A stretch of 64,000 nt of DNA, from contig JBCNUW010000003.1 of NCBI GenBank assembly GCA_039630575.1, positions 1-64,000 of the forward strand, read 5' to 3'. A program made the position numbers and the translations under genes. Position 1 is the first letter of the stretch. Each line of letters opens with the position of its first letter. Positions 21,924 to 30,935 of the stretch are shown piece after piece. Source of the stretch: Candidatus Hydrothermales bacterium. GTDB lineage: Bacteria; Hydrothermota; Hydrothermia; Hydrothermales; JAJRUZ01. The notes under the pieces are model-generated. The model saw nothing but the letters and a program-made list of their open reading frames with translations. It was not told the origin of the DNA and did not search any database.

Positions 21924-22679
21924 ATGTTAATTTTTATATTTTCTCTTCTCTTTCCAGAAAGACCATTATCACCCCAAGTTATAATGGGTTCTCACATTGC
22001 AACTTATAATTCACCCCTTGCAGTTTTTTATCAACCTGCTCTTCTGCCAGGCAAGTTATCTTTTGCATTTACCTATACAAAACCTTATGAGGGTTTACCT
22101 ATAAATTTTTTTGAATCGGCTGTTTCCTTTCCTCTTTTTAAGTTAAATTTGGGTTTGGGTTTTTCATATTTTGGCGAGGAAATCTATAAAGAAAATTTAG
22201 CTATCCTTTCTTTAAGCTATAAAAACTCTCTCTTTTCAGTTGGTTCAAATTTAAAGCTACTATCCCTTTACATTCCTGAGGTCATAAGCCACAATGAGCC
22301 TTCGTTAGATTTTGGAACAGTTTTATTTTTTCCCTTTGATATTAAAATTGGTGCCTTTACAAGGAATTTTTATAGGTCAAAAAATTTTAAAACTGACATT
22401 CCTTCCCTTTTTGCTTTATCCTTTGGAGTAACACATAAAACATTAGAATTTTTCTTTGATCTTTTATCAGAAGAAAATCACCCCTTTACATACAGTATAG
22501 GTTTTAAAATTAATATTTTAAAATCCTTTTATCTAAGAGGAGGTTTAAAAAGTGAAGAAAAGATTCTTGGTGTAGGATTTGGTATTAATCCTGGTTTTGT
22601 TTCTCTGGAAGGTTTTTATAGAGTTCATCCTTTTTTAGGATCCTCTTTTGCTCTCTCTATATCTTTTTATAAAAATTAA
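21924..22679 (+). CDS. PorV/PorQ-like outer-membrane beta-barrel protein
   Basis: MG..A....AVFYQPALL N-terminal motif, amphipathic strands, LDFG, YLRGG, HP.LG near the C-terminus. Confidence 0.6.
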   Translation: MLIFIFSLLFPERPLSPQVIMGSHIATYNSPLAVFYQPALLPGKLSFAFTYTKPYEGLPINFFESAVSFPLFKLNLGLGFSYFGEEIYKENLAILSLSYKNSLFSVGSNLKLLSLYIPEVISHNEPSLDFGTVLFFPFDIKIGAFTRNFYRSKNFKTDIPSLFALSFGVTHKTLEFFFDLLSEENHPFTYSIGFKINILKSFYLRGGLKSEEKILGVGFGINPGFVSLEGFYRVHPFLGSSFALSISFYKN

Positions 22680-27114: not shown

Positions 27115-27903
27115 TCATAGGTAAACTTTACTCTTTCGTTTGAAAATGTTAAAAAGAGCAAAGATAATTAAAAAAAATGTAAGTGTAGCTACAATGGCTG
27201 GACCTGTAGGAATATCGAGAATATAAGATAAAATGGCTCCTAGTATTGAGGATAAAATACCGATTAACCATCCAAAAATAAGCTTCAGAATAAAATTTTT
27301 AAAAAGAAAAGTTGAAATAAGTGGTGGAATTATAAGAAAAGAGAAAACAAGTAACACACCTCCTGTTTGGACAGAGTAAGTCACCGCAAAAGCAAAACTC
27401 GAAAAAAATATTATATCAAATAATAAACTTTTTTCTATACCCTCAGAAAGGTTTAAAAATTTTTTCCATAGTTTAAAGTGTAAAAGACCTATTAAAAGGT
27501 ATACAAAAAATATTCTAATGAGTTTTTCATAGGTAACCCAAAGTAAACTACCTGAAAAGAGCTCTCTTAATGCTTCCTCTCCATGGGGAGCTTTTTCTAA
27601 AAATAAGATTGTAAAGGCTGTAGAGGCAACATAACTTATTCCTATCAGTGCCTCTTGAATAACTTTATTATCATATACTCTGTAAGTAGATAGAAGAATT
27701 GACCCTAATAGACCAAAAATTAGGGAAGATAAAAAGTGGTTTAAGTTAAATAGAAAAGCAAAAGCAACACCCATAGCAACTATTTGAGCAATAGCAAGAT
27801 CAGCAAAGATAATTCCTCTTTTTAGTATATGAATACCAAAGTATGTATGGATTCCTACGAGTATAAATGAAGAAAGCAGTATGGGCAAAATAATTTCAAT
27901 CAT
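27115..27903 (-). CDS. Metal (Zn/Mn-type) ABC permease, ZnuB-like
   Basis: Polytopic; RGIIFADLAIAQ..A.G, LFSGSLLWV, GVLLVFSFLIIP, DIPTGPAIV. Confidence 0.88.
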   Translation of the reverse strand: MIEIILPILLSSFILVGIHTYFGIHILKRGIIFADLAIAQIVAMGVAFAFLFNLNHFLSSLIFGLLGSILLSTYRVYDNKVIQEALIGISYVASTAFTILFLEKAPHGEEALRELFSGSLLWVTYEKLIRIFFVYLLIGLLHFKLWKKFLNLSEGIEKSLLFDIIFFSSFAFAVTYSVQTGGVLLVFSFLIIPPLISTFLFKNFILKLIFGWLIGILSSILGAILSYILDIPTGPAIVATLTFFLIIFALFNIFKRKSKVYL

Positions 27904-28769
27904 TTTTTAAATTCACTCAGAATATTTAAAATATCTTTCATAAGGTCAAAGTAATTTTTGATATTTTCAAAACTATTTATATCATGAGGAAGAATAACAA
28001 ACTTTATACCTGTGAGATCAGAAATTTTTTTCGGAGCTTTTTTGTCATAGTAAATTGAGCTTACTATAAGGGAGACTTTTTCGTTTTTTATTTTCTCAAC
28101 AAGATTTTTAATGTGTTGAAGTGAAGGTGGAATACCTGGTTTTGGTTCAATATAGTCTACAAAATAAAATCCAAACCTTTTTGCTGCATATTCATATAAT
28201 TTATGATAACTTACAAACTTTTTACCTTTAAGGATATTGTAACGTTCAAGCCAAGTATTTAAACTATCACTGATTACCTTTTTTAATTTCTCTCCATTTT
28301 TAAAAAAGATCTCCTGGTTCTTATAATCTAACTCTTTAAGTCTCTTTGTAAGTGAATCGATTATGTAGATGATGTTAATTGGGTCAAGATGATAGTGAGG
28401 ATTTCCAAACGGATGGACATCTCCCATTGCTCTTGTTACGAAAGTTTCTGTTTTTTCGATTATTTCCGGGACAAATTTTGATAAGTTTATATGACTTTTT
28501 TTCCCAGGCATTATTTTAGGATTACCACTTCTTTCTATTAGGTAAGGTAAATACGCTATTTCGAGGTCAAGACCGTTGTAGATAAGCACATCGGCTTTTT
28601 TTATCTCAACTATCATACTTGGTTTTGTGTTAATGTTGTGAGGATCCGATTTTCCATCTACCAAGACATAGATTGAGACTTTTTCGCCTCCTATTTCTTT
28701 TGTTAGCCATCCAATCCAAGGTAAAGTGACAAATATTTTTAATGTTGAAATCAAAAAAAATAAAGTCAT
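27900..28769 (-). CDS. Metal-binding ABC solute-binding protein, ZnuA/TroA-like
   Basis: DPH, NGLDLE, GDVHPFGNPHYHLDP, YH..Y.Y, EPKPGIPPS..H. Confidence 0.9.
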   Translation of the reverse strand: MTLFFLISTLKIFVTLPWIGWLTKEIGGEKVSIYVLVDGKSDPHNINTKPSMIVEIKKADVLIYNGLDLEIAYLPYLIERSGNPKIMPGKKSHINLSKFVPEIIEKTETFVTRAMGDVHPFGNPHYHLDPINIIYIIDSLTKRLKELDYKNQEIFFKNGEKLKKVISDSLNTWLERYNILKGKKFVSYHKLYEYAAKRFGFYFVDYIEPKPGIPPSLQHIKNLVEKIKNEKVSLIVSSIYYDKKAPKKISDLTGIKFVILPHDINSFENIKNYFDLMKDILNILSEFKK

Positions 28770-28781
28770 AATTTCCCTCCT

Positions 28782-29714
28782 TTAAAACGGATGAGCCCCA
28801 TGTGGTCCAACACTGAAATTTGTCTCAAAAAAAATTTTTTTCTCTTTTACCTCATAACTTAACCTAAACCTTGAAAACTCTGTAGGACTAAAGTCAATCA
28901 TGATTATGTTTTTTCTTATACTTTTATTTTCCTCTTCCAAGAGGTCAAACCTATAACCAAGTCTCCATCTTGGCATAAATTTATAAACAAAATCAAAATA
29001 AAAGGAATTAAAATGTCTTTTAGCATCTTGGAAATAACCACCTGTAATCAGTAAACCTTTTAACCTTTCTTCTCCTGGTTTTATCCTTTTTAAAACTATT
29101 TCAATTCCAACCCATTTTACAGTATCCTTTTTTAGACCCATGTAGGTAGACATCCATAAAGTTGTGCTAAAAGGAATTTCATTTGAAAAATGGAGATAAC
29201 TTAAATAATTATAAAAGTTGTTTTCTTTATCCTTAAAAATTTCTATTCCTGGTTCTATAAAAATTTTAAAGGGGAAAATGTAGGATATACCTATACCGAT
29301 TCCGTTTACCCCTTTATCTTTATGATTTTCTACTTCATGGAAATGTGAGTGGTTTTTATGGTCAAAGGTTAAATATTCATACATTTGGGGTAATTCGGGG
29401 AAGTCATAAAAATGAGGATGAAAGGTGTTCAATCTTGTGAATCTACTTTTGAATTTTCCAATAAGTATTTCAAAAGGTAAGGTTAAAGTTTTTGAATATG
29501 CCTCCTCTAATTCAATCCCTTTTTCAGTAATTGGAAAGATGCCATAAAAAATAAAATAGGGATCTATTGCACCTTTCATTACAAATTCAAAAGAAAACTC
29601 GCTAATTATATGATTTGTATCGAGATCTTTTTGAAATTTTGAGTATAAAACTCCCCCAAACTCGGGGTTAAAGTATGGTTGCAAAATTTGTGTTATAAAC
29701 AAAATTTCAAACAT
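28782..29714 (-). CDS. Outer-membrane beta-barrel/porin associated with metal ABC operons
   Basis: IDPYF, LEEAY, GKF..F.RLN.FHPH, His-rich insert HKNHSHFH, PTEFSRFRL, C-terminal GPHGAHPF. Confidence 0.75.
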   Translation of the reverse strand: MFEILFITQILQPYFNPEFGGVLYSKFQKDLDTNHIISEFSFEFVMKGAIDPYFIFYGIFPITEKGIELEEAYSKTLTLPFEILIGKFKSRFTRLNTFHPHFYDFPELPQMYEYLTFDHKNHSHFHEVENHKDKGVNGIGIGISYIFPFKIFIEPGIEIFKDKENNFYNYLSYLHFSNEIPFSTTLWMSTYMGLKKDTVKWVGIEIVLKRIKPGEERLKGLLITGGYFQDAKRHFNSFYFDFVYKFMPRWRLGYRFDLLEEENKSIRKNIIMIDFSPTEFSRFRLSYEVKEKKIFFETNFSVGPHGAHPF

Positions 29715-29787
29715 ATTTTACCTCCTTTTTAAAAAGATATTTAAAAGCAAATTTTGGACTAAACTGATTGATTAAGTAGTGAACTAC

Positions 29788-30057
29788 CTACAAAGAAGGT
29801 GGACCTCTTGAGAGATAATTTATTAGGGTTTGAAAATCAAAAATTTTTGGAAGTGAATTTAAAATTATTTTTATTATGTTATGAAAAATTAATATTTTCC
29901 CTTTATCAATATTTTCAAAATTTGAAATATTTAATTCACAGACTGCACAATCCTCATCTCTTATTTCTAAATGATTGTGATTTAAAAAGTTAAAAAATAA
30001 AAAAGATGATAATATAGTTTCTATTAAAATGATTTTTTTAATTATTTTGAATAGCTT
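29788..30057 (-). CDS. Unannotated DUF2946/CutF/CruR-like leader peptide (HxH, CxxC, C-terminal RGPP); start codon uncertain
   Basis: Manual translation: KLFKIIKKIILIETILSSFLFFNFLNHNHLEIRDEDCAVCELNISNFENIDKGKILIFHNIIKIILNSLPKIFDFQTLINYLSRGPPSL*. No in-frame ATG/GTG/TTG start, so it is missing from the ORF track. Confidence 0.8.
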   Translation of the reverse strand, partial: KLFKIIKKIILIETILSSFLFFNFLNHNHLEIRDEDCAVCELNISNFENIDKGKILIFHNIIKIILNSLPKIFDFQTLINYLSRGPPSL

Positions 30058-30059
30058 TC

Positions 30060-30083
30060 AAAAAAAGGGATTTGAACCCCTTT
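30060..30083 (-). terminator. Intrinsic terminator with T-loop-like loop
   Basis: AAAGGGG-TTCAAA-TCCCTTT running into a T tract, about 10 nt after the lipoprotein stop. Confidence 0.7.
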
Positions 30084-30092
30084 CTATTGATT

Positions 30093-30935
30093 TTAACGGG
30101 TTTTTGAAATTGGTGTTCCGTTATAATCAGCTGTGTAATAGTTGCAGTAATATGTTATAGTAAGATAATTAGTTCCGTCTGTTACTTTGATTTTACCTCT
30201 ATCAGGATATTCACAATCTGAATATTCGTTGAAATGTAAATCTTCACCTATAAATTTTAGAGCATAGGTAATTCCAGCATATTTGAATTCTGAGTTACCA
30301 TCAAAATTGAGTACTCCAGCAACCCATGGATCGCTAGGATTATCTGGTATGTAATTGAAGTCAAAATGTGTTGACCACGAAACTTCTGTTTTCGTAATGT
30401 ATGCATAGTCATATTCAATATGACCAGAAAAAGAGGTTCCTACTTTATCGATATCATAAACAGAATTTGATCTAACAGTAATTAAGGTAGAATCTCCATG
30501 AATAAATTTAAACTCATAATCAGAAAATTTAAGGTAAAAACCTGAAGTGGCATCATTATCGTTTTTATCTTTTATTTCAATTGTTCCACTAAAGATATAT
30601 GTGTAAGGTGGATATGAGACTGTACAGTTATTGTAAGTAATTTTAGCATCTCTGTAATAACCATCACTATCTCCGTCACTGAAGTCTCCATCTCGTGTCT
30701 CACAAGGATCTTGGTTTATTCCATTTCTTTTAAAAGGTGAAATATTAACCTCGTCAGGTTTGAACATTGTGAGAATCAGAAATCTAAATCCATCAGCAAC
30801 TGAGGGAGCAATTGCCTGAGCTGTTTGTTGATTTAGTTCTGTTTGAGGTTTTGGTTCAGTTTTCTTCTCCTTTTTGCAGTTATAAAGGAATATCAGACCC
30901 AGAATTAGGCTTGTTATTAAAGTTATTTTTTTCAT
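30093..30935 (-). CDS. Putative lipoprotein of unknown function
   Basis: MKK, hydrophobic stretch, then LYNC followed by a Lys-rich segment; beta-rich, several Cys, DGDSDG motif. Confidence 0.7.
   Translation of the reverse strand: MKKITLITSLILGLIFLYNCKKEKKTEPKPQTELNQQTAQAIAPSVADGFRFLILTMFKPDEVNISPFKRNGINQDPCETRDGDFSDGDSDGYYRDAKITYNNCTVSYPPYTYIFSGTIEIKDKNDNDATSGFYLKFSDYEFKFIHGDSTLITVRSNSVYDIDKVGTSFSGHIEYDYAYITKTEVSWSTHFDFNYIPDNPSDPWVAGVLNFDGNSEFKYAGITYALKFIGEDLHFNEYSDCEYPDRGKIKVTDGTNYLTITYYCNYYTADYNGTPISKTR

Follow-up and report, generated by a model that had tools for sequence, protein, structure and literature searches.

A conserved His-CxxC-RGPP leader peptide with a candidate non-AUG start precedes a porin and metal-uptake operon in Candidatus Hydrothermales

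Introduction

To our knowledge, arrest leaders that sense a metal have been demonstrated experimentally for copper only; zinc-finger folding has reportedly been measured by arrest-peptide force. CruR (Bp2923) of Bordetella pertussis, a 145-aa DUF2946 (PF11162) protein, is a first-position small ORF with an export signal that heads an outer-membrane metal-uptake operon, and its CxxC lies ~45 residues before a near-terminal RAPP-type motif (PMC9426467). CruR senses copper and controls a TonB-dependent transporter, is poorly translated, and acts with the stalled state as ON and Rho termination as output; metal-driven folding that pulls on the arrest peptide is the model proposed for it (PMC9426467), and its arrest was demonstrated in vitro (PMC12992588). 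CutF of Rhodobacter capsulatus is an exported peptide with a Cys motif (CxxxC) and a Pro-rich end (PMC9973294; bioRxiv 10.1101/2025.02.05.636593), whose Cu-induced stall unfolds an RNA structure shielding the next Shine-Dalgarno sequence (SD) and switches on a detoxifying oxidase, a polarity opposite to that expected of an uptake operon (PMC9973294).

SecM, ApdA and ApdP are small exported proteins that carry a RAPP-like core near the C-terminus, are released by force, and monitor protein export without metal ligands; arrest by RAPP or RGPP has been shown for other peptides as well, and the survey of Fujiwara et al. 2025 contains peptides with a His-CxxC-RAPP build (PMC12992588). ZrgD (DUF2607, PF10795) in Vibrio zrgABCDE is a His-rich small ORF beside zinc-uptake genes, with RAPP-ending examples (PMC12992588); it precedes DUF2796/ZrgA, is Zur-controlled, and is described as of unknown function (PMC9817125). 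According to Roy et al., neither Cu nor Zn has a known riboswitch (PMC9426467).

Here we describe a leader of this build in the window, a 64,000-nt stretch from a genome of Candidatus Hydrothermales (G000; G002, G005 and G215 are other genomes, and L-numbers denote individual loci). Sequencing runs containing window DNA are hot-spring metagenomes of one study, with no RNA run among those listed. We take Candidatus Hydrothermales to be WOR-3, the group label used in our locus counts. Leaders of this class are already in the literature (PMC9426467) and among the source-data rows of PMC12992588. This locus adds a probable ATH start preceded by a T-arm-like hairpin; with it come tests of SD masking at family level and a partial trade-off with Zur-type boxes. 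Among the paper titles and abstracts searched, a scope that left out most subscription journals, none concerned tests of a zinc-responsive RAPP leader or non-AUG initiation in WOR-3.

Results

Leader frame

A minus-strand frame of 89 codons is open from stop to stop at 29788-30057 (TAG 29788-90, upstream TGA 30058-60) and ends 73 nt before the porin ATG at 29714. The first-pass annotation had reported this gap, the positions of HNH, CAVC, RGPP, ACCTTCTTT, the SD AAAGGAGGT and a hairpin, all of which were verified on the sequence. Its figure of 89 codons describes an open frame that is indeed present, but this is a stop-to-stop length, and it overlooked that the frame lacks ATG, GTG and TTG altogether; the peptide is therefore probably 84-85 aa long, read from ATT 30042 or ATA 30045. 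The features of the leader are as follows.

29788..30042, minus strand: leader ORF with a presumed start codon, probably ATT 30042, giving 84 aa, or else ATA 30045, giving 85 aa
29983..30033, minus strand: hydrophobic N-terminal helix (signal peptide or anchor), from the sequence, an AlphaFold helix at 2-20 with pLDDT ~90, and the same segment in homologues
29971..29979, minus strand: HNH, candidate metal ligands, from the sequence
29938..29949, minus strand: CAVC (CxxC), with the Arg of RGPP 43 residues further on
29797..29808, minus strand: RGPP, predicted arrest motif, 2 residues from the stop

Of 100,000 base shuffles of the 89-codon frame (20% GC), 15 left it open, as did 63 of 100,000 order-1 Markov samples. 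The six frames of the 1.89-Mb genome contain 14 R[AG]PP words; that of the leader, 73 nt ahead of the porin gene, is the nearest to its own stop (2 residues) and the only one with an upstream CxxC, which the other 13 lack. AlphaFold predicted helices only and no compact metal-site fold (pTM 0.33), and a paralogue search within the genome found none.

Comparison with known leaders

The hydrophobic helix at 2-20, CAVC and RGPP 43 residues apart, and the position of RGPP 2 residues before the stop give the leader a CruR-type build. RGPP near the C-terminus of a small, predicted secretory or membrane protein also places it in the RAPP/RGPP class. Like CruR, it is a small first-position ORF heading an outer-membrane metal-uptake operon, and it putatively shares the stall-equals-ON polarity and poor translation (PMC9426467). 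It differs in heading a porin, ZnuA-family substrate-binding protein (SBP) and ABC-3 permease operon rather than a copper-homeostasis operon; in being probably 84 aa long, with an added HxH before CxxC and a probable ATH start; and in its favoured output, masking of the ribosome-binding site (RBS). With CutF it shares the exported build, and unfolding of RNA structure around the next SD is proposed for it likewise. The candidate ligands set it apart from SecM, ApdA and ApdP, and the porin gene downstream sets it apart from ZrgD.

The first-pass annotation had likened the frame to DUF2946 peptides. This membership was not borne out: neither this peptide nor those of G002 and G005 matched PF11162, even at E up to 10. 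Among 18 homologous leaders one passed the 23.7-bit cut-off (24.3 bits) and five matched below it; the G215 leader scored 19.9 bits. No match to PF10795 (DUF2607) was found, and Pfam and NCBIfam scans of the leader peptide returned no relevant family. The nearest named clusters in the ESM Atlas were DUF2946 and DUF2607 (the latter at 0.91, with 146 of 256 features shared), which serve as leads only. By analogy, the leader would work like CruR and CutF while falling outside DUF2946.

The Fujiwara et al. survey was built on annotated ORFs, so an ATH-started leader would probably be missed; the searched part of source-data file 8 has 0 matches to 'Hydrothermae', and the main text contains neither 'zinc' nor 'ZnuA' and no test of zinc control (PMC12992588).

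Operon organization

The leader is followed by three genes in the same orientation and preceded by further candidate envelope and metal genes.

28782..29714, minus strand: 16-stranded porin of the GxHGAHxF family, 310 aa (AlphaFold pLDDT 89.6, 16 strands)
27900..28769, minus strand: cluster A-I metal-binding protein (SBP), three His aligned to AdcA, sole ZnuA-family match in the genome
27115..27903, minus strand: ABC-3 permease, ZnuB/AztB-like, by family match
30093..30935, minus strand: lipoprotein-like gene preceding the leader, with synteny in G002 and L096
31517..32251, minus strand: metal transporter of the ZIP/ZupT family, three genes before the leader and likewise syntenic in G002

The top Foldseek matches of the porin were OmpU, OmpT and OprP (E ~4e-9 to 5e-8), and its nearest named relative is labelled Candidatus Hydrothermales. 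The predicted 16-strand barrel is not a TonB-dependent fold. No ATPase gene follows the permease in the operon. The porin, the SBP and the product of 21924-22679 have very short hydrophobic N-termini without a basic n-region; such short N-termini of exported proteins here (e.g. MFEILFITQ, MTLFFLIST) differ from those of homologues elsewhere.

Conservation of the leader

A three-sequence leader profile searched against 1.84 billion representatives gave 3 matches, two Hydrothermales-type leaders and a repetitive 1155-aa protein. Because the leader is too divergent for direct profile search, loci were collected through the porin, and a fixed leader rule with a CxxC-to-motif filter of 28-62 residues was then applied. 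The GTDB sample comprised the best 80 of at least 566 confirmed porin-family loci, 3 of them without usable upstream DNA. A leader (hydrophobic segment, His, CxxC, 43-48 aa, xxPP) was present upstream of the porin in 70 of the 77 evaluable loci, spanning eight phylum-level groups, and in five further WOR-3 loci (G002, G005, G215 and the metagenome loci L096 and L097); a search for the same uORF in related genomes had been proposed in the first-pass annotation. With the locus described here this makes 76 leaders, 70 from GTDB and six from WOR-3, in nine groups assigned by record title; one Clostridia-titled record was placed with Aminicenantes by sequence likeness.

The terminal motif is RAPP in 45 of the 76, RGPP in 9, QGPP in 7 and rarer words in the remainder, and the Arg is replaced (by Q, N, C, H, G or T) in 19. 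CxxC occurs in 73 of 76, always 43-48 residues before the motif (73/73) under a filter that permits 28-62. The first His is at least 90% conserved across 37 leaders; HxH is found in 37 of 73 and HxxxH in 32 of 73. The seven misses comprise L030, a KSPP variant, L074, where choice of the wrong porin start probably hid the leader, and five loci without a leader. At L030 (about 1050-1365), L044, L090 and L093 the motif reads KSPP or one Cys replaces CxxC. In L026, L027 and L036 (Aquificaceae) and in L024, L029 and L033, the leader-to-porin gap is ~300-400 nt and may hold an inserted small gene or RNA element.

Within the family, identity to the leader is 44-45% in G002 and 29% in G005, both of which keep HNH, CxxC and R[AG]PP; the motif reads RAPP in G002, RGPP in G005 and L097, and RSPP in L096. 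Between the G000 and G002 leaders dN/dS is 0.47 at dS ~0.8 (porin dN/dS 0.14), 13 of 37 identical residues are recoded, indels are net in-frame, and all motifs are intact. A profile built from 71 non-Hydrothermales leaders ranked this frame first among 13,104 six-frame genome segments (E=0.022; next 0.19). The leader frame is a real, selected and conserved ORF and, as noted at first pass, it heads a porin-SBP-permease operon outside Proteobacteria.

Porin orthologues are rare in the phylum, with matches in 7 of 272 genomes; two of these are a ~410-aa paralogue with GAHGAHMF (L005 in G001, L004 in G004), which lies after CxxCH (c-type cytochrome-like) genes and has no leader.

Metal identity

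The first-pass annotation had assigned the operon to a Zn/Mn-type rather than a copper system. A zinc type is indicated by the SBP His residues and by Zur-type boxes in Vibrio and at leader-less loci. Zur-type boxes were scored with the core of the Vibrio Zur box (PMC9817125), a core unlikely to detect boxes of other phyla. In Vibrio campbellii, an operon in the same order of porin, SBP and permease lacks a leader and carries two 12/12 boxes. Among the five leader-less GTDB loci, L046, L051 and L067 score 11-12 of 12, L073 scores 9 and L061 scores 6 with this Vibrio-derived core. The two paralogue loci L004 and L005 have a Zur/Fur-like inverted repeat ~70 nt upstream, scoring 10 and 9 of 12. 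Leader-bearing loci scoring at least 10/12 with the same core number 2 of 75 before the leader (1.2 expected) and 0 of 73 before the porin, and the best box before this leader reaches 9/12 (p=0.21). Two Uliginosibacterium loci combine a leader with a palindrome of a second type, which we presume to be of Zur type; leader and Zur-type box are thus not mutually exclusive. The boxes of leader-less operons suggest, in small numbers, that the leader often replaces Zur and hence responds to zinc. The genome encodes one Fur-family protein, which could regulate the operon too.

Taken from the three-His SBP, the ZIP neighbour and the Zur-like boxes of several leader-less operons, zinc is likely the signal. 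Sensing of Mn, Co, Ni or Cu, or of export or thiol state as by a SecM-type monitor, we consider improbable. Such a signal would fit the copper-sensing CxxC of CruR and CutF, the link of His-rich CutF-like proteins to Ni/Co genes (PMC9973294), the Mn/Fe binders that match the SBP at E-values similar to those of AdcA, its closest match, and the 3 of 76 leaders that lack CxxC. It fits less well with the Zur-type boxes on the same operon where the leader is missing, or with His and Cys at a constant distance from the motif. It also sits poorly with V. parahaemolyticus omr-znuAII-znuBII, likened to this operon by gene order, for which Zn limitation gives 283-1034-fold induction (PMC9817125, Table 1).

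Start codon and T-arm-like hairpin

Neither the G000 nor the G002 leader has an NTG start, and ATG is present in G005, L096 and L097. Reading from ATT 30042 gives MKKII, matching the ATG-started homologue in L097. Upstream lies the following element.

30064..30083, minus strand: hairpin with the tRNA T-loop sequence, then a U run; a lineage-specific leader element and/or the terminator of the upstream gene

The U run after this hairpin means that it may also terminate the upstream gene. In G000, 50 T-arm-like hairpins lie outside tRNA calls, vs 4 with a scrambled loop, and a few of the 50 resemble uncalled tRNA ends. An NTG-started frame follows 31 of the 50, at 18-27 nt in 24 of these 31; the distances from 30064-83 to ATA (23 nt) and to ATT (26 nt) both fall within this range. 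G002 has the same element before its leader, with a bulged stem. At the corresponding site, L096 (2035-2075) has a long hairpin rich in G and C that lacks a U run and ends a few nt ahead of the leader ATG.

Bacteria are described as using AUU, AUC and AUA starts occasionally (PMC5499595). Of 1,588 non-overlapping long frames scanned in the genome, 59 have at least 25 free codons ahead of the first NTG, many of them probably artefacts. Pfam matches were obtained for five of six such frames tested, including DUF502 and a TPR/YfiO lipoprotein frame entirely without NTG. Conserved genes of G000 with unusual 5' ends are listed below.

G000 C2:21748-22398, minus strand: DUF502 (L098), no 5' ATG/GTG/TTG
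G000 C29:3639-4325, plus strand: CpoB-like (L099), no 5' ATG/GTG/TTG
G000 C1:83639-84223, minus strand: lipoprotein (L100), no 5' ATG/GTG/TTG
G000 C23:100356-101123, minus strand: RecO (L101), no 5' ATG/GTG/TTG
G000 C13:9096-9881, minus strand: glycosyltransferase (L102), no 5' ATG/GTG/TTG
G000 C20:18102-18857, minus strand: prepilin peptidase (L103), frame opening with CTG

The deduced first codon of DUF502 is ATT, ATC or ATA in six of six genomes, and that of the CpoB-like gene ATA or ATT in all five genomes with an orthologue. For RecO it is ATT in four genomes and TTG in G005; the lipoprotein has ATT or ATC behind AGGAGG in G000 and G002 and TTG or GTG in four relatives. ATT, ATA and ATC thus exchange among relatives at the starts of these conserved genes, and non-AUG initiation looks common in the Hydrothermales family. 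In G002 (C23:161932-162332; L130/L132), recO matches fall in pieces with internal stops and may be frameshifted or misassembled. The infC frame at L106 (G000 C17:19169 region) has an ATG before the conserved N-terminus and no obvious AUU start. The IF3 linker there looks, as we judge it, a few residues shorter than in E. coli IF3. These peculiarities of infC and IF3 could possibly relax start-codon selection.

That the leader of this genome is an untranslated relic with a lost start codon, or that its start was hidden by an assembly error, is very improbable. Such a relic could account for the missing in-frame ATG, GTG or TTG, for the absence of an SD, for the TTG at 30059-61 that sits one base out of the leader frame, and for a leader dN/dS above that of the porin. 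Yet G002 also lacks NTG, both genomes keep the frame open with its motifs and net in-frame indels at dS ~0.8, and ATH starts are conserved in other genes of the Hydrothermales family. A one-base error hiding the TTG start is opposed by G002 and by a contig of run X2 that is identical to the window over 29500-30301; this run is possibly the source sample and hence not independent. From these comparisons, the leader is probably translated, from ATT or ATA behind the T-arm-like hairpin.

Across the family, most leaders have a weak SD or none, and -10-like hexamers cluster 6-10 nt before the leader start, with 19 hits in 73 loci compared with 2 before porin starts; many family leaders are therefore probably leaderless transcripts or nearly so. 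A promoter scan near this leader gave 7 sites vs 4.6 expected. A -35/-10 candidate picked by eye before ATT was rejected, the conserved last T being missing.

SD masking by the leader tail

The elements involved in masking are as follows.

29720..29728, minus strand: strong porin SD (AAAGGAGGT), from the sequence
29792..29800, minus strand: first anti-SD, in the Pro-Pro-Ser-Leu codons (ACCTTCTTT), duplex -11.1 kcal/mol, minor in the ensemble, p=0.18 vs synonymous recoding
29811..29818, minus strand: second anti-SD, in the Tyr-Leu codons, favoured by the minimum-energy fold and lying at the 5' edge of the stalled-ribosome footprint
29773..29790, minus strand: small hairpin beginning at the stop codon, without counterpart in the folds of relatives

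The 9-bp anti-SD helix described in the first-pass annotation can form as an isolated duplex, but it contributes little to the ensemble (pairing probability 0.07 at 37 °C, ~0.2 at 60 °C) and is lost in G005, whose SD is masked by a helix beyond the stop codon, 37-41 nt past the P site. The second anti-SD, 9-13 nt before the P-site Pro codon, pairs with the SD with probability 0.87 at 37 °C and 0.5 at 60 °C. Both candidates would lie under a ribosome having the first Pro in the P site. Folding of 29700-29830 by itself showed no unusual stability (z = -0.36), and no tail-RBS duplex in this genome reached significance (p=0.18, 0.18, 0.67).

Blocking the footprint of a stalled ribosome raised SD accessibility in this genome: at 37 °C it went from 0.02 to 0.05-0.11, with barely any change in the longest window, and at 60 °C from 0.10 to 0.26-0.38. 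The effect at 37 °C was 1.7-1.9 kcal/mol with 30-60 nt of upstream context and at most 0.5 with 120 nt, and an upstream control block was as effective as the footprint block. At 37 °C an effect was absent in G002, G005 and L096 and clear in L097.

Among 61 loci with a spacer of at most 170 nt, an SD of at least 4 and no N, 44 had an RBS opening energy lower by 1 kcal/mol or more under the footprint block, and 10 under the control block. The mean effect exceeded the control in all nine taxon groups. In 64 distinct loci, tail-RBS pairing beat synonymous recoding in 47, random tails in 53 and RBS swaps in 47; kin loci are not independent, so the family p-values overstate significance, and Pro codons are C-rich by nature, a caveat on this complementarity. 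Some loci (L023, L038, L080) have near-perfect, locus-specific tail-RBS helices. Opening of the SD by a stalled ribosome, as first proposed, thus stands on family-wide statistics, but the footprint effect is weakest in WOR-3 of the nine groups. An SD-masking helix with its 5' arm under the stalled ribosome is predicted family-wide, weakly here and not in G005.

Given the weak anti-SD pairing here, the same metal-sensing leader may instead act on transcription, an unlikely but credible alternative. In this case the stalled ribosome would hide a C-rich rut site, release would lead to Rho termination before the porin, and the anti-SD match would be a by-product of C-rich Pro codons. CruR acts in this way (PMC9426467), and the genome has a Rho_N match. 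The C/G ratio of tail plus spacer is 2.27 vs 1.17 in the porin gene (family median 1.49 vs 1.05, with 37 of 75 loci above 1.5), the anti-SD evidence is weak in WOR-3, and the spacer exceeds 160 nt in 12 of 76 loci. Set against this are the family-wide excess of tail-RBS pairing over synonymous recoding and RBS swaps, the near-perfect helices, and a spacer here that is 73 nt long and AT-rich. Both outputs could also coexist.

Discussion

We favour, as slightly better than an even chance, a mechanism in which the AUU-started leader stalls at RGPP under zinc scarcity and keeps the porin RBS open for the uptake operon. Translation would start at ATT or ATA behind the T-arm-like hairpin. The ribosome would arrest when the first Pro occupies the P site, which the analogy with ApdA, ApdP and CruR makes highly likely. 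In a zinc-poor cell the stalled ribosome would hold the porin SD open, and the uptake operon would be made. When metal is available, a His2Cys2 site just outside the tunnel or translocon would bind it, fold, pull, and free the stall; the metal is rather probably zinc, with Mn, Co, Ni or Cu sharing the remaining likelihood. After release, the tail would refold onto the SD and porin initiation would drop, a step that is reasonably likely for the family and evenly balanced for this genome. We infer this mechanism for a leader that likely answers to zinc; in this genome its output may run through SD masking or through Rho.

The most general form of this proposal is doubtful, and we offer it tentatively. 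It would make the leader a pan-bacterial zinc-sensing arrest switch, in which a His2Cys2 nascent peptide replaces Zur at porin-ZnuA-ZnuB operons and gates the porin SD, and which in Hydrothermales is launched from AUU by an SD-independent T-arm-like signal, with AUU, AUA and AUC initiation being routine.

As the Hydrothermales copy shows, ATG, GTG and TTG starts can be missing from leaders and also from ordinary genes, recO among them, so surveys based on standard gene calls would undercount such leaders. Cultured hosts among the leader loci are Hydrogenobacter, Dechloromonas and Uliginosibacterium. If the family answers to zinc, it would constitute a post-transcriptional zinc sensor across at least nine phylum-level groups.
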